The translations under genes and the position numbers were made by a program. From positions 96,001 to 160,000 of the forward strand of contig CBDASZ010000001.1 in assembly GCA_965199755.1 (NCBI GenBank): a stretch of DNA of 64,000 bases. The letters are read 5' to 3'. The number at the start of each line of letters is the position of its first letter. The first letter of the stretch is position 1. The stretch comes from an uncultured candidatus Porisulfidus sp. (GTDB lineage Bacteria > Pseudomonadota > Gammaproteobacteria > Poriferisulfidales > Poriferisulfidaceae). Under the pieces are notes generated by a model that saw nothing but the letters and a program-made list of their open reading frames with translations, was not told the origin of the DNA and did not search any database. Positions 12,990 to 48,930 of the stretch are shown here, one piece after another.

Positions 12990-15900
12990 TTAAGCCGCCC
13001 AGACTTCCTGTAGTTTGCGCCACAAGACCCGCGTTTCAAGCCGCAAATCGTCCACAATCAGGTAGATGCACGGCAGCGCCAGCAATATCAGGAAGGTCGC
13101 GAATAGCAAGCCAAAACCAAGGCTGGCCGCCATCGGAGTCAGAATGCGAGTCTGTCCACTGGCGAAGAAAATCAGCGGCGACACGCCAAGGAAGGTGGTC
13201 ACAGAAGTCAGCAGTATCGGGCGAAAGCGCGCCCGACCGGCATGCAGTACGGCCTCCATGCGCTCAATTCCTTTCCGGCGCTCCTCCTCAGCGAAATTGA
13301 TCAGTACCAGAGAATCGTTGACCACCACGCCAATCAGCGCCAGAATGCCGACCAGTGACAGGAACTGAACATGAATCCCAAGCAGTGAATGCCCAAGTAC
13401 CACGCCGACCAGACAGAAAGGAATGGAGAACATCACCACCAAAGGATCCAGCACCGACTTGAATAGCAACGCCAGAATGAAGAAGATCAGAATCAGAGCG
13501 ACGGTGACGGCAAATTGCATGTCCGTGGTCGCATCCAGTGCTTCCTGCTTCTCTCCCAGATAGGTCAGTTCCACATCATCGCGATACGCAAAGCGCTCGC
13601 CCAACTCCTGATCCACCAGATCCGTGATGATGCCGGCTGTGGTGGTCCTCTCATCCACATCGGCCGACACCGTGATCATGCGCTGACCATCGCGGCGATG
13701 CACGGAAGTCAGACTGCGCGTGGCTTCAATATCCGCGACGTCCTCCAGATACACCACGCCGTCGGGCACCACCACCGGAATCTTTCCGAAGTCCGCGGAA
13801 CTGCCGCGCGTGGATGGCTCATACAGCAACCGCACCGGAATCCGGTGTCCCTGAAAACTGGTATACAGCACCCGGTCACCTTGATAGCCAACCCGCACCG
13901 CGGCACCCAGTGCTGATTGCGTGAGGCCCAGCTCCCGACCACGATCATTGAGCGTGTACTGATACTCGACCTTGCCGGGCATCAGATTGTGCTGCACGTC
14001 TTCCACGCCTTCGATCTGGCGCAAGAAGTCTTTGATCACCTCGGCTTCGGCCAGCAGCACCTCAAAATCCTGTCCGACCAGACCGATTTCAATATCAGCA
14101 CCCGGCGGTCCGGCCTCAGGTGACATTACCAGCAGGCGCTGAATCCCGGTTACGGCTTTCAGGCGCTCACGGGTCAGCGAGCGCAGTTCCTGATTACGCC
14201 GCTCGCGCGTCCCCGCCGCATCAAAATTCAGACTGACCACCGGATTGACGTAGGTTTCCAGCCAGCCCTCTGGCGCTGACGGCGTCAACTCCACATTGAT
14301 ATTCAGCTGATTGCCACCGTAACTGAGTTTCTCGCCGAACATGGAGAAACCGATATTGGTCTGAATGTTCAGCACTTCGTCCTCGCGCAACACTTCACTC
14401 AAGGCCGATTCCACGCGCTCCGCAAGCAAGGTTGTGTCCCTCAGGCCGTAGGTGCTGGGCGCTTCGATGTTGATGCTGAACTCGTCCAGATCCAGACCAG
14501 GGAACTGGGAGTACGACAGCCGGGTCATTCCCCAGATCAGAACAATGACCAATATGCCAATGGTGCCCAGCAGCACCAGATAACGGTTGTGAATGCAGTG
14601 GTCAAGCACCGCGCAGTAGCGCGTATGCACTATCTTCCATATCTGATCCCTGCGCCGGTTGTGCTGCAGGCGCAGCAGTTCAGCGGCATGGCTCGGCATG
14701 ATCAGGAAGACTTCCATCAACGACCCCGCCAGCGCCGCGATCACCACGATCGGAATCACTTCCACATATTTGCCCAGTATTCCGCCAATATTGAACATCG
14801 GCAGAAACGCAGCTGCCGATGTCAGCACCGCGGCGATCACCGGCCACATGACTTCTTTGGCACCCCGCTCCGCTGCCACATGCGGCTCAATGCCTTCCTC
14901 CAAATGTCGATAGGAGTTCTCGGCGATGATGATGGCATCATCCACCACCAGTCCCAACGCCACCAAAAACGCCGTCGCGCTGACCAGATTGATAGTGTGC
15001 CCCGCCAATGACACCAGAATCACGCCGGTCAGCATGGCGACCGGGATGCCCAGCGCCGTAATCAGCGCGGTGCGGAAATTCAACAGAAAATTCATCGCCA
15101 GCAGCAACAGCAACAGCGCCACCACCCCGGCTGATTTCAGCGTCTGAAGCCGCCGTTCGATCCACACCGAGGTGTCCCGAAACAGGCCGTACTTGATGTC
15201 GGACTCGCGCGGCGTGTTAGCCAGAAAGTCCCGAATCCGCTGCACCACGACAGCAGAGGAGGAATACTCCGTCTTAAACACATACAGACCGATCGCAGGC
15301 GCACCATTGAAGCGCCCGGCGGTCTGAACTTCCTCCAGTTCCATGTTGATGAGGGCCAGATCCCTGAGACGCAACTGTCCGCCCTGAGGGTTGCCACGCA
15401 CCACCACGTTGCCGATCGCCTCCAGATCCTTGGCCCCATAACCGCGCAGCAAAATATCGCCTTCCTGCGCGTAAATCGTGCCGCCCGGAGTATCGCTCAG
15501 GTTGTCGCGCAAGGCGCGACGGACTTCTTCCAGACTGACGCCCAGCGCGGCCAGTTGCCGCGGATCGATCTGCACCCACATCTCCCAGTCGCGATCGCCG
15601 GTGGTGAAACGAATCTCGGACACTCCCGGTACCGTCAGCAGTTGTCGGCGCAATTCCTCCGCCTGCAGTTGCAGACGAAACTCCGACACCTCTCCATACA
15701 CCGAGACGTTGATTAACGGATGCGGTGACTTGATGCGCGTCACCAGCGGATCATCAGCCGCTTCCGGCAGATTGTCCATGGCCTGAACTTCGTCGCGAAC
15801 CCGCTGCAGCATGTCATCCACATCCGCGTTCTCAAGCAGCTCAATGCGAATATTGGAAGATCCCTCGCGCGACGTCGATGTAATATTCTTGATATCTGGC

Positions 15901-36416: not shown

Positions 36417-36470
36417 ACACCTATAAGCCTCTGGCGCATATAGCCCCCACTTAATCTTCAGGATTGAATG

Positions 36471-36944
36471 ATGAATCGTATCTCGCTACCGCGCGCAGTT
36501 GTTGCTGCCGCACTCTTTTTTGTCCCATTCGCTGACGCTGATGCCGAGGAACTTTCCGAAGCGCAACAAGCGGCCGTCGCGATGGTGGACGTCGCCGCTG
36601 CACACATCGGCAGTGACGGCATCGTCAGTTTGATCGACGCTGTCAACAATAAGGACGAACGCTATCTGGATGGCGACTTGTACATGTTTATTCTCAATGT
36701 AGGCGGCACAGTCGTAGCCAGCGCCGCGTTCCCGGACACGGTCGATCAGAACCCCAATGAGGCCACGGACCTAGACGGTAATGCGTTCCTCGGCAATCTG
36801 GTCGCAGACTCACGGAGCAACCCGGACGGCATCTGGTTCAGCTATCGCTGGAAAACCCCAGGCGGAGCCGTCGGCGAAAAAAGCAGCTGGCTTCGCTTCG
36901 TTGACGGGCACGTGCTCGGTGCCGGTGTCGTCACTCCCGACTAA
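36471..36944 (+). CDS. secreted stand-alone single Cache-domain protein, copy 1
   Basis: Signal peptide; DGDLYMF, DLDGNAF, GIWFSYRW, EKSSW, VLGAGV. Confidence 0.75.
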   Translation: MNRISLPRAVVAAALFFVPFADADAEELSEAQQAAVAMVDVAAAHIGSDGIVSLIDAVNNKDERYLDGDLYMFILNVGGTVVASAAFPDTVDQNPNEATDLDGNAFLGNLVADSRSNPDGIWFSYRWKTPGGAVGEKSSWLRFVDGHVLGAGVVTPD

Positions 36945-37021: not shown

Positions 37022-37495
37022 ATGAATCGTATCTCGCTACCGCTCGCAGCGATCGCCGCAGCACTCCTTTTTTTTCCGTTCGCTGACGCTGATGCCGAGG
37101 AACTTTCCGAAGCGCAACAAGCAGCCGTCGCGATGGTGGACGCCGCCGCCGGACACGTCGACAGTGACGGCATCGTCAGTTTGCTCGATGCCCTCAACAA
37201 CAAGGACGAGCGCTATCTGGCTGGCGACCTATACTTGTTTGTGCTCAATGTGGGCGGCACCGTCGTGGGCAACCCTGCATTCCCGGAGAGCGTCGACAAG
37301 AACCCCGATGAGGTCAAGGATGCGGACGGCAATGCGTTCCTCTCCAACATGGTCGCGGAATCGCGGGGCAACCCGGACGGCGTCTGGTTCAAGTACCGCT
37401 GGAGCACTCCGAGCGGAACCGTAGGTGAAAAGAGTAGCTGGCTTCGCTTCGTTGACGGACACGTGCTCGGTGCTGGAGTCGTCACCCCCAACTAA
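37022..37495 (+). CDS. secreted stand-alone single Cache-domain protein, copy 2
   Basis: Close tandem paralog of 36471-36944. Confidence 0.75.
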   Translation: MNRISLPLAAIAAALLFFPFADADAEELSEAQQAAVAMVDAAAGHVDSDGIVSLLDALNNKDERYLAGDLYLFVLNVGGTVVGNPAFPESVDKNPDEVKDADGNAFLSNMVAESRGNPDGVWFKYRWSTPSGTVGEKSSWLRFVDGHVLGAGVVTPN

Positions 37496-40409: not shown

Positions 40410-40752
40410 TCAAACCCCTACTTGATGCAGCGCCACTTTCACCGTGTTGGCCACCAGACAAGCCACCGTCATCGGTCCGGTGCCTCCAGGCATCGGCGTG
40501 ATGTATCCGGCCACTTCACGCACCGCGTCGAACTGCACATCCCCTTGAATCTTCCCGTCCACACGGCTTACTCCTACATCAAACACGGCGGCACCCAGTT
40601 TGACATGATCGGCGCTGATGACTCCCGGACTGCCCGTCACCGCCACCAGAATATCGTCGAACAACTGCGATTCATAGCATAGCGACACCAGCGCACAGTC
40701 CGCACGGGAGCGCTCCAGCAAGCGGTCGTAGTAACCTTGGCGTTGCCCATGC
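40410..40752 (-). pseudogene. chimeric remnant: 5-formyl-THF cyclo-ligase 3' fragment fused to a folD 3' fragment
   Basis: [33 protein letters not shown] matches 48368-48480; DILVA...[15 protein letters not shown] matches 46514-46760. Confidence 0.85.
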
Positions 40753-40818
40753 ACAGTGGTGGTGAGGTGGTTGCGGAATTTTTGCATGCGGGTCATGCAA
40801 AAGACTGTTCGCGGTCTA

Positions 40819-41446
40819 TCAAAATCGGCGGTATGTAACAACTCGCGTCTGCTGCGAACCCTTTATGGTTGCCAGATCAGGCACCGTGCGTGTGGCACAT
40901 ACAGCGAAAACCATGCCGTTCCCAGAACCAATCAATAGCGCCGGGGCATGATGCGGGCTATAGCCGCGGCCAGAACGTGCAGATCGATTACTGTTCTGGT
41001 TGCTATGGTTGCGAAGACTGTTTGATTGGATGGCGATGGGATCACGATGTGAGGATTCGTTTGGGGATGACTCGACATGCTTGTTGGGTGCCCCCCGCGC
41101 ACAAGTCGACTGTTGTCCTGGTTGCAAGGGTCCCGAAAACTGCTTTGTTGCTCGGGGAGCTCCAGAGGACCCCCCCCCCCCCCTATATCTGTAGCTGATA
41201 CCTTGTATGTCGTCATTCACAGGCGTTGCTTTCTCGGCATCACCTGAGCTATCGGATCGAGAGTATGCAGACCCGGTACCGTGTTGGTCGCGACTGTCGC
41301 GAACACCGTCCGCGAAGTTGGCATTGTAATCACTATCGCTTTCTGGAGCAGATGCGGCCTTGTCTCCCTGTGAGTCCCAGATCGGGGGCTGACCTTGTGG
41401 CAAGCAGTCCCCATCCGATTTGAGTGCTGTTTGAGACATAGACTGC
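40819..41446 (-). repeat. array of five diverged ~120-bp TRD cassettes (41333-41446, 41217-41339, 41042-41170, 40932-41051, 40819-40941)
   Basis: Each encodes hydrophobic strand - (V)F/W-x3-AT(R/N)-x3-(D/G)L - basic end, then a stop; adjacent cassettes are in shifted frames. Confidence 0.9.
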
Positions 41447-44400
41447 CCCCCCCCCCCTGTTTCATTTCCACGAGGGAATAGCGCAGCAGCCGTTTTGCCT
41501 GCGGACAAGATACGCCAATCCTCATACAGCCAGATTTTTACAAATGGCCGGTATAACACCTCCCTGATATTAGCTTCATCAAAAGTAAGCCTGATTTGTT
41601 TGCGCAACGTTTTCTTAAGGGCATCCGTCCACTTGATTGATTTGATATTTTGAGTGCTTGTCAACTCATCAAGAGCTTGCTGGTTGTCTGGTTTCTGCAA
41701 GATGTCCAGTGTTTTGTTGTATGTGTTAATGAGTGCTTGGGCCTTATTAGCACACTCTTCCCTCGACCAACTGTAGACATAAGTGTCTAAGTTTGTCTTG
41801 ATGCCAGCAACACTGCTAGTAGCGACCGAAGCACTGGCGTTAGTAAGTTTCGCTCTTGTGTTTTTCTGACACAATGGCATCAATGAATTAAATTCCGGAT
41901 TGCCAAGATTAATCCAGGCATGATCTGGAGTCACCGGTATTGTCTCGAATTGTTCGTGGTAAACGTCACCGAGATCCTCTAGCCACTTAAACTTTTGCTC
42001 TAGACTCCGGGAGTCTGGGACCATCGCAATACGCAATGTTGCCGGTTTTTTAATATCCTTCTTCGGATCGTAAACCAAGAAAGTTATCTGGACCCCATTT
42101 CGGGAAGCGCTACCAAAAACCTTATCCCCCTCAAGTTCCCATTCGCTACCACTCTTGTAAGCGTTCCCCCGCAAATTTGCAACATATATGTCCGTGAATT
42201 CGTCTCGCAGAACCTTTCTCATGCCTGCCAGCGAGGTGGCATCCGACAGAGAGTTTGGCGTAACCATTGCCAAAATTCGCGGCCCCGAGGTGACACCTTC
42301 CTGTCCCTGCTTCAGTATCCGGTCGGAGCCCCAGCGCAGTGCCTTGACATATAAGTTGCCACCTGCGTTCCCGCCGGGTGCCCGGCCAGTCAGCTGAGTG
42401 TGTTCTTGAACATAAGTCTGGTGCACCCGCTTGGCGATATCCTGATAGAGAATGTTCGATGCTTTCTCTGATGCGTCATCCTTGCCACTGGACCATGGCG
42501 GGTTCGTCACCAGAACCTCAATATCGGCATCACCTTGGCGCCGTACCCGCTTGTAGTTGTCCTCAAGGTCGTCTGAGTCCAGATTTAGTCGAGCACTTGA
42601 ACTTCCCGGATCAAGTAGAAGCGTGTCAACCAAACTTAAGGACTCGAACGGCTCGTAAGACAACTTGGAGGGGTCTGCCACGCCGGCTTCCTCAACTTGG
42701 CGCTGATGCTTCGTGGCTTCGATGTTCAGGTTTGCAATGTAGTAGGGGAGGAGGAGAAGTTCATTGCCGAAAAACTCCCGCCGGTATTTTCGTGAAAGGT
42801 CAGGCTCGCGAATAAGGTAATTGCCATCGTTATCCCGGAGATTAAGAAGCCGTGCGAGGAATGTCCCTGTGCCAGCGAAGGGTTCCAAAATACGAACATT
42901 CTTGTCAGAAATGCTTTTCCCAAATTCCTTCTGACAAATAGCCTCAATGGAATGTAGCACGAAATCCACAATTTCCACAGGCGTGTATGCAATGCCCATA
43001 GATTTCACTTGACCCGGTATTGCTTGCCGGAAAAAGCTTTCATAGATCTGGCGCAAGATGTCAAGTTTTTTCGCATCACGATCTTGGATTTTCTCCAAAT
43101 TTCGCTCACATCGCTGATCTTCATCAACCAGTTCATCGGCGTGTAAAGCAGTCCGCATCATTTGATACGGGCGCTCCAGTGGTTCGAGTTCAGCCCGGTA
43201 TTCCATTCCCTCAACCTCAAACGCATCCAGTACCTTCTGAATCGCAGCTGACACGGGATTGTCATCGGCAAAATGAGACTGCGAAAAGAACTCATCAAAG
43301 ACTGGTAGCGTGACGATGTGGTGCGCCAGCATGCTGACCGCCATAGTCCGATTGATATTCGGACTGACTGCCTTTTGGAGGTCCACCAAGAACCCATTGA
43401 AGTGCTCTTCAACGGCCGAATTATTATCAACGTGGGCATTGATTTTGGTTTCAATCTTGTCTGAGATTTCAGCCGCGTGCTTGCCCCACTGCAGATACAT
43501 GTGACGGTCGCCACATTCTTCAATTACGAGTGACCCGAATTTCTCTGCTATTGCTTGCCTAAACTTTTCTGGGTCCGCATAGATTGTGTCCTTGAGGTCG
43601 TCACGGACAGAGTCGTCCCTTTTGAGCGGCGGAAGTAATTTGAACGTTACTGGCAATGCACCAGCTTCAATTTCATAGTTTAAACGTTCGTCGTGTGAGC
43701 GCAATGCTCGAATGATTTCGTAGACAGGCTCGAAAGCACTTTTCCTCAGTGTTTTCTCAGCAGCGGCCTTCACATCCCCCCAATCCCAGCTCATCTGAAG
43801 CTGAAGCACTACTGGAATGATCACATAGCCTATCTTCTTATGTGGCGCTCGGCGCATGACCCGGCCCACTGCTTGCGTCACATCAATAGGAGACCGTCTT
43901 GTTTGGAGAAAAACAACCGCATCCAGAGAAGGAACGTCAACTCCCTCAGTGAGTACTCGGACATTTGTCAGAAGTTCGCATACATTTCCCGCAGTGTCTT
44001 TGTGAACTTGCCGCAACCTGTCAAGTTGCGCATCACGTTCAAACGCTGGTGTCTTTGCATCCAGATGATTTACCGACAGTTCCAGTAACTCTGTTTGACC
44101 GTCAGATGGCTCTTCGTCCGAGGCGGAGTACCACTTGATCACGTCGTTCCAAACTTTCTGAATTCTTTTGCTTTCTTTCACACGTGATGCAAATACCAGG
44201 GCAGAGCGGCAGGGTTCCCCATACTGGTCAAGGTTGATCCCACCAATTGGAAGTTCCGGATGTTGCCCCTTTGAGAGTGGGCTAGCTAGCGCATCCCAGC
44301 AACCAGCAAGTTTGATGATGGTTTCGGAGTCAATTTGTTCTCCACCTACATCTATCTCTCGGCCTGCGACTTCACGCTCAAAATCATCCTGTGTGCCACC

Positions 44401-45741
44401 AATGATTACGATCTCGTAGTCGCTCAAATAACCCTCTTTGATAGCATGAGCGAAACTCATCCGATATGCCTCATCGCCGTATGTTTCGACATCGTCCATA
44501 GAATAACTCTGTCCATCAAAATTGCGTTGCTCGAGTTTTTTTCGATGAGTGGGAGTAAACACCCTCGGAGTTGCCGTCATATAGATACGCTTCCTCGCAG
44601 GTAAATACGTGTCGGAATGCAACAAAAGAAAAGGTGATGTGTTTTCGATCTCACTGGCATGCGGCAGGCTGGAAATTTCCTTGTCTGGGTGTTTGAGCTT
44701 CTTCTTTTTCTGCTTGTTATCTTCAATTCCTGTAGTTCGGTGCGCCTCATCAGCGATGATCAGGTCAAGAGTGGCTTTCTTCCCATCGCGTTCAAGCAAA
44801 GATAATGCGAGCGCAAGAACATCTGATGACTGATAAGTACAAAATACGACTCTCATGGCCCCACCTGGCACAGGCTTGGACAACCTTTCCGCCAACTTCT
44901 TTGGCCGGGTCGTGACGGGGATAGGCATTTCAATTACTGATGTCCCATCATCCCTGCCGACCGTTTTGTCGGAACACACCGCAATGTACTCAATAGGTAC
45001 ATCGCGATCGCGATGGCGAGACCACTCTTTTATGGTCTGCCGAACGAGAGCAAGTGACGGCACCAGATATGCAATGGTCTTGCCGGATCCAAACAATTTC
45101 TCAGCAGTACGCAAAGCAACGAAGGACTTCCCGGTGCCGCACGGCAATATCAGTTTGGTGCGGTCTTTTCCTTCAAGCTCCGCTTGAATGCCCTTAATTG
45201 CCTCTCTTTGAAAGTCGTGTAGTTCATGTCGTTTTGTAACAAAGTGTGATGGCCGGACATCAAATTGTTCAAGTGCACCTACAAGACTCTCCCGATCATC
45301 AAACCAGCCAGCAATATCTTGAGTCGTAATCACTTGACATTCAGGGTTTGCATTTTCGAGTTGCGCCTGTACGTTTGAGGTGAGAGAGCGGGTTGTGACT
45401 ATCAAGCGCAGTTTGAATTTCTCGGACTCGCTGGCACCCAGAAAGGAATCAACTTCAGCTTTTCTTACTGTCGAACTGCCGTACTTCGCTTGGACCGCAA
45501 CTAAGCCTCCGCCGTAAGTTTCCGTCTGTTTGGCAACAATGTCTACGCCAATATCAATCCGGCCCCGGTAATCAACGTTGTCAGGCCAGTCCCTCCAGAG
45601 CCAAACGTTCTCGAACCTGTCACGGCCCCAGTCACCAGGGTGTTTCGTAAAGACCTGATGAATGAACTGTTCAAACGTTCGTCCTTGTTGCTGGCGCGAA
45701 CCTTGAAAGTAATTGTCGAAAATTTCTTCGATGCTTTCCAT
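40819..45741 (-). CDS. Type ISP restriction-modification enzyme (Mrr-like nuclease, SF2 helicase, N6-adenine MTase, partial TRD) with a frame-switchable C-terminus
   Basis: GVDIVA..VAVQAK nuclease; [23 protein letters not shown] helicase; EPFAGTGTF and NPPW MTase; [13 protein letters not shown] motif. Confidence 0.92.
41170..41183 (-). repeat. poly-G14 slippage tract 2 (coding strand)
   Basis: C14 on the plus strand directly before cassette 3. Confidence 0.95.
41446..41457 (-). repeat. poly-G12 slippage tract 1 (coding strand)
   Basis: C12 on the plus strand directly before cassette 1. Confidence 0.95.
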
Positions 45742-45781: not shown

Positions 45782-46459
45782 CTATGAGTCAAATAAAGAC
45801 CCCGAGTCAGTTGAGACTTCCGATAAAGGTTCAGAGGGCAGTGCCGGCGGCAATGAGCGGATGATTCGGGTCGACTCGATACCAATATAAATGAGGCGGC
45901 GCAAGTGATTGATCAATTCGACAGAGTTATCTGCCCACGCATGCCATGTATTTGGATCGTCACGTATGCCAGAGCGTTTATCAAGCTTCTCACGGAGCGA
46001 GCCAACGGCCCACTCAAGTGGCGACCTGCCAGAGATCTGGTACTCATGCGCCTCAGGAGGGATATCGACTAGTCTGCAATGGTCATTGACGTGAAGAACG
46101 GACCTGTCTTCCTGCTTTGTTTCAGGGTCCTTGCCAAACCGCATCTGCTTGACAATCCGGTACCTGAGATTCTCATCGACACTCTCGTCAACGATACACT
46201 TGACATCAGCCAGAGGAGCTTGCTCGTAGTCGGCGTGCAACTCGAAAAGCTCCGCGCCTGCTTTACAAAATTTCTGAAAGGCCTCAACCCCACCTGGGAC
46301 GAGCGGGATGGATGGCAGATTCTTCTGTAGATCATTCTTGAACTCACGCCGCCAGTCGGGCGCGTGCATAACACCGTAAATGTAATCCCAAACGTCGTCT
46401 TTGGTTATATCCTCTGATTGATAGACTTTCTGAAACTGTGCCAGCGACCAATCGGACAC
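45782..46459 (-). CDS. separately encoded C-terminal part of the Type ISP specificity domain
   Basis: ITKDDVWDYIYGVMHAPDWRREFKNDLQKNLPSIP, IPPEAHEYQISGRSPLEW, SGIRDDPN: the usual extreme C-terminus of ISP enzymes. Confidence 0.88.
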   Translation of the reverse strand: MSDWSLAQFQKVYQSEDITKDDVWDYIYGVMHAPDWRREFKNDLQKNLPSIPLVPGGVEAFQKFCKAGAELFELHADYEQAPLADVKCIVDESVDENLRYRIVKQMRFGKDPETKQEDRSVLHVNDHCRLVDIPPEAHEYQISGRSPLEWAVGSLREKLDKRSGIRDDPNTWHAWADNSVELINHLRRLIYIGIESTRIIRSLPPALPSEPLSEVSTDSGSLFDS

Positions 46460-46478
46460 ATTATCTGTTTCATATGGA

Positions 46479-46493
46479 GGGGGGGGGGGGGGG
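46479..46493 (-). repeat. poly-C15 tract (coding strand) just after an out-of-frame ATG
   Basis: G15 on the plus strand; ATG at 46500-46498. Confidence 0.95.
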
Positions 46494-46513
46494 CAAGCAT
46501 GGGAATCCCGGTG

Positions 46514-47374
46514 CTAATTGCCCGAGTTATGTAGTGCCGCCTTCACAGTATTCGCCATCAAGCAGGCAACTGTCATGGGCCCGGTGCCGCCTGGCATCGG
46601 CGTGATATAGTCAACCACTTCGTGCACTAAATCAAATTGAATATCTCCTCGTATTATGCCATCCACACGCGAGACCCCCACATCAAAGACGGCGGCACCC
46701 GGTTTAACGTGATCGGCACTAATGATCCCGGGACTTCCGGCAGCTGCTACCAGAATATCCGCCTCCCGCGTCAACTGCATCAGGTCCCGTGTGCGCGAAT
46801 GCGCCAGTGTTACCGTCGCATCCACGCCTCGCTCAGCCAACATCATTGCCATTGGCACGCCGACCAGCCGGGAGCGACCCAGTACAACTGCACGTGCGCC
46901 CTCGGTCTCAATTTTGTAATGGTTAATCAGTTCAATCACACCCGACGGCGTGCAGGGGCGCAGGCCTGGCAAGCCAACCGACAAGCGGCCTAGGTTGATT
47001 TCAGTCAGACCATCGACATCCTTGTGCGGTGGAATTGCGTGTAGAACAGGCCCTGCGTCCAAGTGCGATGGCAACGGCATCTGCACCAGAATTCCGTGCA
47101 CGGTCGAATCCTGCGCCAGAATGTGAATCGCTTCAATCAGATCTTCTTGCTTGGTGTCTGAGGGAAGCGCCAGATGACGGGACAGGATGCCTACTTCGCC
47201 GGCTTCCGCGATCTTCCGTGAGATGTACAACTGGCTGGCCGGATCGTCACCGACCAACACCGTGGCTAGTGTGATGGGAGGAAGGCCGCGAATTTGCTCA
47301 CGCAGCCGACCGCACAAAGCATGCGCGACGGCAGTGCCGTCGATAATCTTCCCGGAATGTAAGGGCTCACTCAA
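46514..47374 (-). CDS. folD: methylenetetrahydrofolate dehydrogenase/cyclohydrolase
   Basis: [42 protein letters not shown]. Confidence 0.95.
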   Translation of the reverse strand: MSEPLHSGKIIDGTAVAHALCGRLREQIRGLPPITLATVLVGDDPASQLYISRKIAEAGEVGILSRHLALPSDTKQEDLIEAIHILAQDSTVHGILVQMPLPSHLDAGPVLHAIPPHKDVDGLTEINLGRLSVGLPGLRPCTPSGVIELINHYKIETEGARAVVLGRSRLVGVPMAMMLAERGVDATVTLAHSRTRDLMQLTREADILVAAAGSPGIISADHVKPGAAVFDVGVSRVDGIIRGDIQFDLVHEVVDYITPMPGGTGPMTVACLMANTVKAALHNSGN

Positions 47375-48293
47375 GAGGAGGCTGTTTGTCCGGGTCCAGG
47401 TAAATCAGGTTCTTGCCCAGCCGGCCACCGTAGTTGCCCGCCGAGATCATGATCAAGCCGTCCGTATCCTTGGCCGCGTCAATCGCCGCGTGAGTCGCGT
47501 CAATGATGGTCGGCAGATCCCGACCATTGATGATGATCTCCATGACCGAGTTGACGCCTTCCGGCAAACCGTCCTCGACCTCTGGATCATCCTGCAACAA
47601 GGGGCAGTATTTCTCGTAGGTGCTGGCAATGGAGAAGCTGTAGTCGCTGCCCGGTTTGGAGCCGGAACCCGCGATGCCGCCGGGGAAACACATCACCACG
47701 CCGGGCGTCGCCGCTACCGCTTTCACGCCAGCCTCGGCCGCTTCCAGCGCCGAGTCCACACCGTCACCAAAAAACCAGAGATTGCCGCCCATCAGGCCGT
47801 CCGCATAACCGAGACGCCGATCAAGCACAAACTCACCGCCGAGAATCGGCACCCACCACATCCGACGGCCAAAGCGTTCAATCCGTTTCTGCTTGCCGTT
47901 GCCGAAATACGCCACCTTGCGGCCCATCTGGTAGTACTCTTCCGTATCCAGCAGGTTGAAGCAACTGGCTGTCGGGCAGGTCAGGACGTTTTGGCTGATG
48001 CGCACCAGCGCGGCGCGCTCAAGTTTGGTCACACGGTCTTTCCAAAAGCGCGGCACATGCAACTGCACAATGGCACCGGGGCGTCCGTCAGGGGTCTCAA
48101 AACTCTCATCGCCGCCCGGCCCCACGAAGCGATCCAATCCCGCCTCGCAGTCGCACAGGATGGTGCTGGCGGCATTGCCGACCGCCGCGTCCACTGCGTG
48201 CTTGACCCAGGTTTGGTCCCGGGCCGTAATCAGAAACTCCGCGTAAAGGCTTTTGAATGCCTCGGCGTAAGTATCGTCAATTCGCGCCGCCAT
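47367..48293 (-). CDS. formylmethanofuran-tetrahydromethanopterin N-formyltransferase family protein (Ftr/FhcD)
   Basis: IDDTYAEAF, CDCEAG, TPDGRPG, VLTCPT, GGNLW, FPGGI..SGSK, EIIING, ISAGNYGGRLG. Confidence 0.9.
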   Translation of the reverse strand: MAARIDDTYAEAFKSLYAEFLITARDQTWVKHAVDAAVGNAASTILCDCEAGLDRFVGPGGDESFETPDGRPGAIVQLHVPRFWKDRVTKLERAALVRISQNVLTCPTASCFNLLDTEEYYQMGRKVAYFGNGKQKRIERFGRRMWWVPILGGEFVLDRRLGYADGLMGGNLWFFGDGVDSALEAAEAGVKAVAATPGVVMCFPGGIAGSGSKPGSDYSFSIASTYEKYCPLLQDDPEVEDGLPEGVNSVMEIIINGRDLPTIIDATHAAIDAAKDTDGLIMISAGNYGGRLGKNLIYLDPDKQPPLE

Positions 48294-48297
48294 CAGA

Positions 48298-48930
48298 TCA
48301 ATCCCGGCCGCGACCTGTGTACACCGCCGCTTCGGTCACAACGTAGTCCATATACACATCGTGCGGTGCCACCAGAATCTCATCAAACAGTTGCGATTCA
48401 TAGCACAGCGACACCAGCGTGCAATCCGAGCGGGAGCGCTCCAGCAAGCGATCGTAGTAGCCTTGCCCGTTGCCCATGCGACCACCGTCACGGTCGAAGC
48501 CAACGCCGGGAACCATCACAAAGTCCAGCTCTTCCGGTTCGACTTCCTTGTCCGGGTTGCCCCACATGTCTTTCGGCGGCTCCAGAATGTTCCATTTGCC
48601 GACCACCATCTCCTCGAGGCTTTCCATGTGCCACAGGCCGAGCTTGTTCTCGCCCTGCTCATCCACGGTGCAGTACGGCACGATCACTTTCTTCTCGCCG
48701 CGCGCCACTTCTTCGAGCAATTCCGGCTTGGTGCGGGTCTCGGAGCGGCAATCGATGTACCACATGATGACGTGGGCTTTCTGGTATTCCTCCAGCGCCA
48801 TCAATCGGGCGACCGCCTGATGGCTGATTTCATCTTTGTTTTCCTGGGCATTGCGGCGATCGTAGGCTTCGCGGCGCATTTTGCCCTTGCGCTCCATGAT
48901 GGCTTCGAGTTCTTCTTGCGACAAGGCCAT
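48298..48930 (-). CDS. 5-formyltetrahydrofolate cyclo-ligase
   Basis: [35 protein letters not shown]. Confidence 0.92.
   Translation of the reverse strand: MALSQEELEAIMERKGKMRREAYDRRNAQENKDEISHQAVARLMALEEYQKAHVIMWYIDCRSETRTKPELLEEVARGEKKVIVPYCTVDEQGENKLGLWHMESLEEMVVGKWNILEPPKDMWGNPDKEVEPEELDFVMVPGVGFDRDGGRMGNGQGYYDRLLERSRSDCTLVSLCYESQLFDEILVAPHDVYMDYVVTEAAVYTGRGRD

Follow-up and report, generated by a model that had tools for sequence, protein, structure and literature searches.

The window is a 64,000-nucleotide stretch from the genome of an uncultured candidatus Porisulfidus sp., and all positions below refer to it. The features of the restriction-modification (RM) locus all lie on its minus strand and are given here in coding order, the tracts having been placed by sequence, three-frame translation and a frame walk:

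46479–46500, minus: tract 3 region, with an ATG (46500–46498), CTTG and then tract 3 itself, C15 on the coding strand (46479–46493)
45785–46477, minus: small subunit, the C-terminal TRD remainder (core helices and guide), 231 aa, stop at 45782–45784; Pfam Type_ISP_C, profile positions 167–340, E 8.1e-46
41458–45741, minus: large subunit, constant part, with Mrr-type nuclease, SF2 helicase-like ATPase, coupler, N6-adenine methyltransferase (NPPW) and the N-terminal TRD part
41446–41457, minus: tract 1 (coding-strand G12), where the first of two three-way frame choices is made
41333–41446, minus: cassette 1 (AVYVSN...SRKR, stop), linker-free, read when tract 1 is 3k+1; HMM E 3e-06
41217–41339, minus: cassette 2 (AIVITM...KQRL, stop), read when tract 1 is 3k+2; HMM E 4e-14
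41184–41445, minus: read-through frame (tract 1 of length 3k), whose 87 aa form a hydrophilic linker that passes cassettes 1 and 2 off-frame and leads to tract 2
41170–41183, minus: tract 2 (coding-strand G14), the second three-way frame choice, nested in the first
41042–41170, minus: cassette 3 (VLWSSP...ILTS, stop), read when tract 2 is 3k; HMM E 3e-18
40932–41051, minus: cassette 4 (HIVIPS...PRRY, stop), read when tract 2 is 3k+1; HMM E 3e-16
40819–40941, minus: cassette 5 (ALLIGS...YRRF, stop), read when tract 2 is 3k+2, the assembled state; HMM E 3e-16
40410–40841, minus: island boundary, where a 5-formyl-THF cyclo-ligase (5-FCL) fragment and the 3' end of folD form a chimeric remnant

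As assembled, the large-subunit gene (P0001; 40819–45741, minus strand) is an uninterrupted ORF of 1640 aa. Pfam matches to Mrr_cat_2 (1.2e-22), ResIII (1.7e-15), ISP_coupler (3.4e-24), N6_Mtase (4.1e-07) and Type_ISP_C place five families in the order expected of a Type ISP enzyme, namely nuclease, ATPase, coupler, gamma-class N6-adenine methyltransferase and TRD. Searched against the PDB, the protein matched LlaBIII at 2.1e-153 (residues 31–1312, a full-length alignment) and LlaGI at 1.3e-151. The catalytic motifs are kept, DEAH and NPPW being invariant in 29 aligned relatives. The constant part contains YRPF (residues 1397–1400) and the equivalent of Loop V, and its last residues are ...ALFPRGNET. 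Type ISP enzymes are defined by ATP-driven translocation, by cleavage when enzymes coming from head-to-head sites collide and by hemimethylation of an asymmetric site. The 'SP' of the name denotes a single polypeptide, which is not what we found: the large subunit matches Type_ISP_C at profile positions 5–101 only, and positions 167–340 lie on a separate upstream gene. To judge from these matches, the system appears to work like, and to descend from, Type ISP enzymes, but in a two-gene form.

The sequence-only reading that preceded this work named the small-subunit gene only as 'the upstream subunit', and tract 3 was absent from it. Stand-alone homologues of the small subunit numbered 219 and range from 127 to 405 aa. 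Three-frame translation showed that, in the C15 state, the frame opened by the only ATG closes after 31 codons and the small subunit is out of frame; the two are joined when tract 3 is 3k+1 (C13 or C16). In a near relative (P0002) the gene starts MPPPPPYETDNV, and contigs vary in this region by 5 or 6 letters. These features point to tract 3 as a probable ON/OFF switch independent of cassette choice, and the system may be OFF as sequenced, the small subunit being out of frame with its ATG. A complex model of large-subunit residues 1240–1640 with the small subunit gave an ipSAE of 0.84 (best of three controls, 0.32) and passed a mark that 58 of 80 solved complexes and 2 of 110 mismatched pairs also reach, a pass that may mirror the likeness of the two chains to the two halves of the fold solved in LlaGI/LlaBIII. 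At least 35% of contacts are common to the runs, the partner has a pLDDT of 82 or more and chain 1 one of only 48–54, and the modelled interface includes YRPF and the cassette-5 residues 1600–1640. The model thus suggests that the large and small subunits would assemble, with the small one supplying the TRD remainder in trans.

The locus lies in an island with a GC content of 49.9%, compared with 60.4% in the flanks. In the boundary remnant, the 5-FCL fragment is 87% identical to 48368–48465 and the folD end 74% identical to 46529–46759, with a Pfam match to THF_DHG_CYH_C at profile positions 81–158 only; the neighbouring genes are URO-D, gltD-like, folD, FTR, 5-FCL and DAO. The split form was not found in 40 relatives of the window genome or in 400 genomes of the phylum, where the matches are unsplit enzymes of 544–1713 aa, and a search of genome contigs with the small subunit alone returned a single match, an unsplit Brachybacterium enzyme. 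Because the split form is missing among the sampled kin, the island looks imported and was probably acquired horizontally. Across the whole 1.39 Mb genome there are nine G/C runs of at least 9 nt, all of them 11–16 long (none of 9–10), and three belong to this locus. The others lie in or adjoin typical contingency genes, among them those for a Dam-like methyltransferase, a helicase–methyltransferase fusion and a heptosyltransferase.

Downstream of the constant part, every frame runs stop-free into one of five mutually homologous cassettes of ∼40 residues. All five match an HMM trained on enzymes of other genomes, with E-values from 3e-06 to 3e-18. Cassette 2 is preceded by a 33–36 aa linker that is the off-frame translation of cassette 1, the cassette 5 state carries ∼164 aa of linker in total, and four of the five states put 33–164 unrelated residues ahead of the cassette. 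The five cassette peptides of the sequence-only reading were reproduced letter for letter, with a stop after each, and its map from tract length to cassette came out the same on codon reading of both tracts. Its statement that there is no OFF frame holds for the large gene but not for the split enzyme, whose small TRD gene carries a C15 tract as its own candidate ON/OFF switch. G12, G14 and C15 are all repeats of a non-triplet unit within or at the start of a coding region, as in SSR contingency loci.

The design requires six off-frame passes across cassettes. All six are stop-free, a result equalled by 0 of 5000 synonymous recodings, and the product of the per-pass stop-free probabilities is 7.5e-05. 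The off-frame peptides have a mean hydropathy of −1.13, compared with −0.45 (sd 0.145) for recodings, and are more hydrophilic than 3000 of 3000 of these. Codon choice that keeps the off-frames open and hydrophilic has been strongly selected.

The sequence-only reading had proposed a genome search for ISP genes followed by polyG–cassette–cassette arrays, and 20 of 28 related metagenome loci proved to carry repeat–cassette arrays, with 3–6 cassettes each in rotating frames; among the other eight, one shows part of a cassette where its contig ends and seven have none (mostly short contigs). All arrays use all three frames, and the open stretch runs back to a non-triplet repeat in 75 of 79 cassettes. 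The repeats at the junction are G/C runs of 7–34, (GA)19–20 or (GAAC)/(CGAA)12–18, and a repeat-encoded run lies behind YRPF in 34 of 38 large-subunit relatives. Nested five-cassette arrays occur in at least four loci (L013, L014, L031 and L034). There are exceptions: one cassette of L013 has an internal stop, in L016 a frameshift splits the first cassette, in L019 the fourth cassette does not extend back to a repeat, and in L015 one frame enters the small-subunit gene without a cassette. The cassette architecture is a trait of the family, extending beyond the window locus, and the design is found in many sponge-associated bacteria.

The broken cassettes in a few family members would fit a decayed or mis-assembled gene for an enzyme that was once unsplit, with tracts that are frameshift lesions or homopolymer assembly errors and with cassettes left as debris of duplication. 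The foreign character of the island, the small subunit lying out of frame with its ATG and the error-prone nature of homopolymers could be read in the same way. We nevertheless regard decay as very improbable. The 1640-aa ORF is intact and its catalytic motifs are retained in the 29 relatives; the exact length of a tract is immaterial, since any length yields a cassette; HMM matches are as good for silent as for expressed cassettes; and the off-frame stop and hydropathy statistics would not come from debris.

To place the cassettes within the enzyme, natural cassette-bearing C-termini were compared with LlaGI (5ffj) using phmmer. In the alignment, YRPF corresponds to LlaGI 1310–1313, the constant 'RILSSVKT' to Loop V and the cassette to LlaGI '...LLINISGQGDKADFATLISEYLSDMHVIGGQARNLPRF' (E 4.1e-07; 0.0018 in a second run), so that the match to the LlaGI segment after YRPF..FP, noted earlier from the letters, is now seen by alignment as homology to an in-line TRD segment. 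Since the large gene covers Type_ISP_C positions 5–101 and the small gene 167–340, a TRD without a cassette has a gap at 101–167, and the cassettes fill it. The residues described as contacts in LlaGI, H1368, G1372 and Q1373 (position +3) together with N1327 and R1329 (Kulkarni et al. 2016, PMC4872093), land exactly on this alignment. The residue behind the cassette 'DL' aligns with H1368 and is G, H, C, H and A in window cassettes 1–5, respectively. By alignment, a cassette would comprise the last strands of the TRD core sheet plus Loop VI, the reader of target position +3 in LlaGI/LlaBIII. The proposed change of specificity rests on this homology to Loop VI of LlaGI, from which we infer that the five states would have five different recognition sequences.

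Cassettes were also grouped by clustering on their Loop VI columns, single linkage on whole cassettes having merged nearly everything. The Loop VI classes that recur across many genomes have 33, 20, 17, 12 and 9 members. Two cassettes of one class in the same array were found in 0 of 21 arrays, and 0 of 20000 shuffles over 14 non-redundant arrays reached this result, a comparison weakened by conserved cassette order (shared ancestry).

These classes bear on whether the cassettes, though switched by slippage, leave recognition the same and instead alter the activity or the surface presented to phage anti-restriction proteins or regulators. RM enzymes are targets of phage inhibitors, and only the first cassette behind each tract is linker-free, so that the others might be attenuated forms. 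We consider this decidedly unlikely, as the LlaGI Loop VI residues aligned with the cassette's variable core make base-specific contacts at +3, and a few Loop VI classes across many genomes are what a small base-reading alphabet would give. Moreover, in H. pylori Type IIG enzymes, exchange of the equivalent TRD segment is described as changing the motif (Krebes 2014, PMC3936762).

We next compared repeat lengths between closely similar copies. Two sister loci (L020 and L022) align over 798 nt with 0 mismatches and one 1-nt gap (G11 versus G12), which gives them different terminal cassettes; among three others (L030, L036 and L039) the length of (CGAA)n varies, and L030 is not in the same state as L039. 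For the window strain, Logan contigs have tracts 1/2 of 11/13 (run X1) or 12/13 (X2 and X5), compared with 12/14 in the assembly, all such lengths coming from short-read assemblies and Logan contigs, in which homopolymers of 11–15 are error-prone and minor variants are dropped. The X1, X2 and X5 contigs differ in 0 other letters over 503–509 nt, and together with the assembly they imply cassettes 2, 4 and 5. Near relatives (P0122 and P0124) were assembled in the cassette-4 state. In a raw-read run (X7), depth was about 1–5x, with almost no read spanning a tract. Length polymorphism in otherwise identical copies, a hallmark of SSR contingency loci, is thus present in short-read contigs.

Among sister loci, repeat length varies and cassette order is unchanged. 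This counts against the downstream cassettes being silent, pilS-like donors for recombination or gene conversion with the tracts incidental, a reading that we hold to be very unlikely. The cassettes are indeed tandem, homologous and mostly unexpressed in any single state. However, donors need no open or hydrophilic off-frames, yet both are strongly selected; there is little DNA identity between cassettes, and no long direct repeats were found among them; non-triplet repeats stand at the same junction in 20 other arrays; and a nearby recombinase gene is absent. The locus does not have the makings of a shufflon either: no recombinase gene was found nearby, all cassettes lie on one strand, and the only inverted repeats are the tracts. 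The recombinase-free ternary frame choice of the sequence-only reading is therefore upheld, all frames opening into a cassette in a neighbourhood without a recombinase gene or inverted cassettes.

The polymorphism also speaks to the level at which slippage acts. If it acted on RNA or at the ribosome, or if frameshifts were suppressed, each cell would make a mixed pool of cassettes and be multi-specific, with no heritable choice. Long homopolymers are known slippage sites, and with all frames open into a functional-looking cassette no product of slippage would be wasted; making all variants at once would, moreover, avoid self-restriction after a switch. A 2026 preprint (Bhatti and Saikrishnan) points the same way, describing an SSR-bearing mod gene whose 'OFF' frames are expressed at a low, frame-dependent level. 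We judge this unlikely as the main explanation, given that DNA-level length differences are seen directly between otherwise identical copies, and that the (GA)20 and (GAAC)12–18 of relatives are classic substrates for DNA slippage but poor ones for transcriptional slippage. The two levels are compatible rather than exclusive.

To account for the sequence design, its conservation, the repeat-length polymorphism and the codon-level selection on off-frames, we favour with some confidence a horizontally acquired, split Type ISP enzyme in which two G tracts, read modulo 3, choose one of five modules and a third tract acts as an ON/OFF switch. Slipped-strand mispairing at tract 1 would select cassette 1, cassette 2 or read-through, and after read-through tract 2 would select cassette 3, 4 or 5. 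The off-frame crossings of cassettes, open and hydrophilic, would act as flexible linkers, and tract 3 would turn the small subunit ON or OFF independently. Slippage would be frequent and reversible, and as many as five recognition specificities, along with an OFF state, could coexist in a population. We lean, less firmly, towards a wider proposal: a widespread two-gene Type ISP class with a base-3 switch, in which a repeat is followed by three overlapping modules, each read as a loop in one frame and, in the other two, as a hydrophilic linker under selection. Nesting would give 5–7 heritable specificities without a null state. The TRD would have been split in evolution to put the variable loop at the C-terminus, where frame choice is harmless, and the hidden second tract would serve as a memory, drifting while the first tract picks another cassette.

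Several known systems resemble the locus in part. In NgoAV, a separate HsdS subunit reportedly alternates between two forms. Like this Type I system, described as having phase-variable specificity (Adamczyk-Poplawska et al. 2022, PMC9577141), and like the recombinase-driven hsdS shufflons (Atack et al. 2020), the window locus would offer a population several specificities from one RM locus. The shufflons, as described, need inverted repeats and a recombinase, and the window locus is without both. LlaGI and LlaBIII (5ffj, 4xqk) share its domain order and sequence, with YRPF, Loop V and Loop VI aligning residue by residue, but each is described as a single polypeptide, free of repeats and with a TRD that is fixed, whereas here the TRD is spread over two genes and Loop VI comes in five versions. 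In H. canadensis, 3'-located repeats are described as changing the C-terminal sequence without switching the gene off (Snyder et al. 2010, PMC2823697); the tails are not described there as homologous modules, whereas each frame here encodes the same structural element.

The closest likeness is to the H. pylori Type IIG enzymes JHP1272 (Hpy99XIV) and HP1353–HP1354 (HpyAXVI), in which one of two homopolymer tracts governs ON/OFF and the other specificity, with an experimentally shown motif change from GGWTAA to GGWCNA (Krebes et al. 2014, PMC3936762). These are single-chain RM enzymes, likewise with a gamma-class methyltransferase and a TRD, in which a short base-reading TRD copy is brought into frame. 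As described, however, their switch is a two-state one, in which a complete TRD receives an additional C-terminal segment that displaces part of it. The window locus shows no segment added behind a complete TRD and duplicating part of it, and each product has exactly one cassette. It further differs from the published H. pylori case in having 3–6 mutually exclusive cassettes across the family, in rotating, overlapping frames with nested tracts and no cassette-free state; in that the variable segment is the true C-terminus and a second gene supplies the remainder of the TRD; and in enzyme class, Type ISP with a motor and an Mrr nuclease. The sequence-only reading knew of no description of the architecture. 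That is borne out for the multi-cassette array, as no three-frame or nested cassette array and no split Type ISP enzyme was described in the literature searched (few subscription journals covered), but not for frame-driven specificity switching, which has a two-state precedent in Krebes 2014.

Phase-variable RM systems are known as ON/OFF switches or recombinase shufflons, and the only printed case of repeat-driven specificity that we found is two-state. If our interpretation is true, a single repeat would provide a three-way choice of specificity without an OFF state, and nesting would extend the choice. The locus would be a natural case of coding in three frames, with selection measurable on each, and the Loop VI classes would amount to a natural library, in which base-reading modules can be exchanged while the scaffold stays constant. 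Engineering the specificity of restriction enzymes has been called an unaccomplished challenge (Kulkarni 2016, PMC4872093), and such a library would bear on it directly. After a change of specificity, unmethylated sites in the cell's own DNA should become targets of restriction, which raises the sharp question of how a cell survives when an enzyme that both methylates and cuts changes its target. The switch itself would need no extra enzyme, which would suit small symbiont genomes under a heavy load of phage and foreign DNA.

The large-subunit gene carries two G tracts and five alternative C-terminal cassettes (c1 to c5) of about 40 residues. Three-frame translation of the sequence placed them as follows, each cassette ending at a stop.

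40819-45741, minus strand: large-subunit open reading frame, uninterrupted, 1640 residues (P0001)
41446-41457, minus strand: tract 1, G12
41170-41183, minus strand: tract 2, G14, 262 nt beyond tract 1
41446-41333, minus strand: c1
41339-41217, minus strand: c2
41170-41042, minus strand: c3
41051-40932, minus strand: c4
40941-40819, minus strand: c5

When codons are read through tract 1, a length of 3k leads to read-through, 3k+1 to c1 and 3k+2 to c2; tract 2 gives c3 at 3k, c4 at 3k+1 and c5, the assembled state, at 3k+2. This is the rule that the sequence-only reading had put forward, and its five cassette peptides were reproduced exactly by three-frame translation and a frame walk from the YRPF motif. 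Its interpretation, a five-state specificity switch that needs no recombinase, is supported with two additions, a split enzyme and an ON/OFF tract. The accompanying claim that there is no OFF frame holds for the large gene but not for the system, since the small gene carries an ON/OFF tract of its own (C15).

Pfam searches identified Mrr_cat_2, ResIII/DEAD/Helicase_C, ISP_coupler and N6_Mtase in the large gene, and its constant part aligns nearly completely to the prototype Type ISP enzymes LlaBIII (E 2.1e-153) and LlaGI (E 1.3e-151). Only positions 5-101 of the 342-position Type_ISP_C profile are found in this gene; positions 167-340 (E 8.1e-46) lie in the gene directly upstream (45785-46477, minus strand), which encodes a small subunit of 231 residues. 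Since Type_ISP_C is divided between two genes, the enzyme is split. Judged by the profile, the large gene encodes all parts as far as the middle of the target recognition domain (TRD), the cassettes fill approximately positions 101-167 and the small gene provides the rest. The window's is the one Type_ISP_C locus in its genome.

A model of the complex between large-subunit residues 1240-1640 (alignment A2) and the small subunit (A1) supports binding of the two subunits. Its ipSAE was 0.84 (runs 0.84, 0.82 and 0.85), against 0.32 for the best of three controls; 58 of 80 solved complexes attained the ipSAE mark, as did 2 of 110 mismatched pairs. The runs share at least 35% of contacts with a partner pLDDT of at least 82, and, for all the length of the linker (164 residues), the confident interface takes in both YRPF (1397-1403) and cassette 5 (1600-1640). 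The model's success may stem from likeness, because the LlaGI and LlaBIII structures already show the fold of which the two subunits are halves.

In order to place the cassettes on a known structure, natural C-termini in which the cassette stands straight after ...FPR (P0146 and P0149) were aligned to LlaGI chain 5ffj_A (E 4.1e-07 and 0.0018). YRPF pairs with LlaGI 1310-1313, the constant 'RILSSVKT' with 'LNENVRKT', and the cassette with 'LLINISGQGDKADFATLISEYLSDMHVIGGQARNLPRF'. According to Kulkarni et al. 2016 (PMC4872093), LlaGI Loop V spans 1324-1331, with N1327 and R1329 reading position +5, and Loop VI spans 1365-1374, with H1368, G1372 and Q1373 reading +3. The Loop V and Loop VI contact residues land on the expected alignment letters, which fixes the numbering. 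By this alignment, Loops IV and V appear to be retained in the constant part, the cassette would comprise Loop VI together with the strands that complete the TRD core sheet, and the small subunit would contribute the core helices and the 'guide' subdomain. At the position of H1368 the cassettes have, from c1 to c5, G, H, C, H and A, and the loop beyond this position varies in length and sequence among the window cassettes. From this we infer that the cassettes alter the base or bases read at +3, perhaps at a neighbouring position too, and we consider it probable that frame choice changes the recognised sequence.

Clustering of 118 cassettes on their Loop VI columns gave a few large classes and many singletons, the largest class having 33 members; others were DL[CS]AxGTNQPxR (20 members), DLHA[LV]DPAxR (17), DLHLMGPGQQTR (12) and DLCATGRQTR (9). 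None of 21 arrays holds the same class twice, and shuffling 55 cassettes over 14 non-redundant arrays gave duplicate-free arrays in 0 of 20000 trials, a result partly due to shared descent because cassette order is conserved among arrays.

Several observations argue against a chance arrangement. A cassette profile built from the C-termini of other genomes' enzymes matched all five window cassettes (E 3e-06 to 3e-18). All six off-frame passes over cassettes that the design requires are stop-free. Of 5000 recodings, made by back-translating the cassette peptides with codons at the frequencies used in the gene itself, none achieved this (per-pass probabilities 0.11-0.38, product 7.5e-05). Mean Kyte-Doolittle hydropathy was -1.13 for the off-frame peptides, +0.22 for the in-frame cassettes and -0.45 (sd 0.145) for recodings, and 0 of 3000 recodings were as low as the off-frame peptides. 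Since the off-frame peptides are more hydrophilic than the recodings, codons here have been chosen for their content in all three frames, as would be the case if translated off-frames serve as linkers. Across the whole 1.39 Mb genome (58.2% GC) there are 115 G/C runs of 6 bases, 14 of 7 and 2 of 8; lengths of 9-10 are absent, and of the nine runs that measure 11-16 bases, three lie at the Type ISP locus. We conclude with high confidence that the locus is a selected frame-choice device.

The architecture recurs in other genomes. Of 516 candidates, 219 are stand-alone homologues of the small subunit (127-405 residues, E 0.001 or better). Those listed, 120 in number, have lengths of 194-336 residues and identities of 50-97%, and the few named among them come from Acidimicrobiia-type MAGs. 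For the large-subunit C-terminal region 38 relatives were found; 34 of them have a run after YRPF (GGGG, PPPP, RERERE, SLSLSL, THTHTH or the like) and end in a cassette. A scan of metagenome contigs yielded 28 loci, 20 of which hold arrays of 3-6 cassettes; one more shows part of a cassette where the contig ends, and the other seven, mostly on short contigs, have none. In all 21 arrays (these 20 and the window's) the cassettes rotate through all three frames, and each cassette starts approximately 20 nt before the preceding stop. When the stop-free stretch is followed backwards in a cassette's own frame, it runs into a non-triplet repeat in 75 of the 79 cassettes; of the other four, one stretch hits a contig edge and three meet no repeat, among them the fourth cassette of locus L019. 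These repeats comprise homopolymers of 7-34 G or C, (GA)/(AG)19-20 and (GAAC)/(CGAA)12-18, and such varied chemistries at one junction argue that frame shifting itself is selected. Nested arrays occur in L013, L014, L031 and L034 (five cassettes), L015 (four) and L023 (six). The small gene directly follows the array at 14 loci, precedes the large gene at four (the window's arrangement) and is divergent at two. L029, L030, L036 and L039 are one locus in four contigs, with (GAAC)/(CGAA) in 12-18 units; this repeat reads ERTN in all three frames, so the same peptide results whatever the frame.

Some arrays contain decayed members, as indicated by broken cassettes in L013 (minus strand, about 14863-15150; internal stop, ...NMTF*ALVTG...) and L016 (9579-9712; first cassette split between two frames by a frameshift). 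In L015 (2684-3833), one frame past the second G9 tract lacks a cassette and runs 380 codons into and through the small gene, fusing the two subunits; such a fusion might be inactive or have relaxed specificity.

Repeat lengths differ between closely related copies. L020 and L022 match over 798 nt with no mismatches and a single 1-nt gap (G11 versus G12), and the enzyme ends in the third cassette in L020 and the first in L022. Three CGAA units are the sole difference between L030 and L036; L039 differs further and is in another state. L017 and L024, which are 97% identical, carry C21+C12+C23 and C12, respectively. The window stretch is present in sponge-metagenome runs, for which Logan contigs give tract 1/2 lengths of 11/13 (run X1) and 12/13 (X2 and X5), compared with 12/14 in the assembly; no other letter differs over 503-509 nt. 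The predicted states are cassette 2 (X1), cassette 4 (X2 and X5) and cassette 5 (assembly). In more divergent contigs the upstream tract is 5 or 6 letters shorter. Among relatives, proteins P0122 and P0124 are likewise set to cassette 4; P0123, with its one tract, is set to cassette 5. All these lengths come from contigs built from short reads, in which homopolymers are prone to error, and coverage in the raw-read run was insufficient to reveal heterogeneity within a sample.

The third tract lies at the start of the small gene.

46500-46498, minus strand: the small gene's only ATG, followed by CTTG and then tract 3
46479-46493, minus strand: tract 3, C15

C15 leaves the ATG frame open for 31 codons; at 3k+1 it would read MLAPPPP..PYETDNV..., and the 97%-identical protein of a near relative, P0002, begins MPPPPPYETDNV. 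The system thus appears to have an ON/OFF switch, which would be OFF as assembled unless translation starts at a GTG further downstream (46459), for which no ribosome-binding site is evident. Among the 120 small-subunit homologues listed, a run of P or G within the first 15 residues occurs in only four, so this third switch is a feature of the lineage and not of the family. At window position 46493, three raw reads of run X7 end in loose G-rich sequence with at least 17 G past the upstream tract, which may be a poly-G artefact of Illumina sequencing or point to a longer allele.

The locus looks like an imported island. GC content is 49.9% over its 6.1 kb versus 60.4% on both sides, and one edge carries a chimeric remnant.

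40410-40841: remnant at the island edge; partner gene region 46514-48930; the other edge is intact folD

The remnant joins a 98-nt piece of 5-formyl-THF cyclo-ligase (87% identical to 48368-48465) to the last 231 nt of folD (74% identical to 46529-46759), which suggests that the island came with flanking DNA of a related donor. No recombinase gene was found among the neighbours, which are of ordinary metabolism, and the 40 relatives and 400 phylum genomes searched held no split enzyme, only unsplit ones. Elsewhere in the window, 36468-36944 and 37022-37495 (plus strand) are tandem, closely similar genes of 158 and 157 residues with signal-peptide-like N-termini.

Other long tracts lie on contigs C1 and C2 of this genome. 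A second large gene, with Helicase_C and N6_Mtase domains, has a C13 tract (G13 coding; C1:850197-850209, L053:2998-3010) close to its 3' end; its open stretch exceeds 1011 residues and is continued in another frame by one of 234, and it may encode a second repeat-controlled restriction-modification-like enzyme. A G16 tract (C2:131557-131572, L055:3058-3073) falls at the FGGGG motif of a D12-class (Dam-like) adenine methyltransferase gene, which is followed by a gene with DUF6996, DUF6997 and DUF7226 and is probably part of another phase-variable modification system. The remaining tracts (C2:165003, L056; C2:266339, L058; C2:9879, L054; C2:218866, L057) fall inside the genes of a protein with a weak HATPase_c_3 match and of a family-9 glycosyltransferase (heptosyltransferase), a short way upstream of the gene for a giant Calx-beta/fn3 surface protein, and beside truB, one in each place. 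Their settings indicate a small, typical set of contingency loci.

The closest precedent is the switch of H. pylori Type IIG enzymes. In Krebes et al. 2014 (PMC3936762), one tract acts ON/OFF and a second alters the motif, by experiment, through appending a copy of the base-reading TRD segment; as described there, however, it has two states and the segment is added to a complete TRD. The term C-terminal phase variation was introduced by Snyder et al. 2010 (PMC2823697), and NgoAV is presented in PMC9577141 as a Type I system with phase-variable specificity. In their passages on this subject, two recent reviews go no further than homopolymer switches of the ON/OFF kind or general remarks on switched specificity. 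Neither a split Type ISP enzyme nor an array of cassettes in rotating frames was found described in the full-text literature searched, outside which most subscription journals lie.

We propose that slipped-strand mispairing would alter tract 1, 2 or 3 by one base. Tract 1 would select c1, c2 or read-through, tract 2 would then select c3, c4 or c5, and tract 3 would act as the ON/OFF switch of the small subunit. Whenever c1 or c2 is the choice at tract 1, tract 2 would not be translated in a meaningful frame and could drift, constituting a hidden memory. A much less likely alternative is that several products coexist in one cell, an explanation motivated by the frameshift suppression at an SSR reported by Bhatti and Saikrishnan 2026. 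Under the proposed selection by tract length, each large-subunit product would join the small subunit to form a complete TRD with a different Loop VI. The architecture is apparently a widespread, undescribed variant of repeat-driven switching of restriction-modification specificity.
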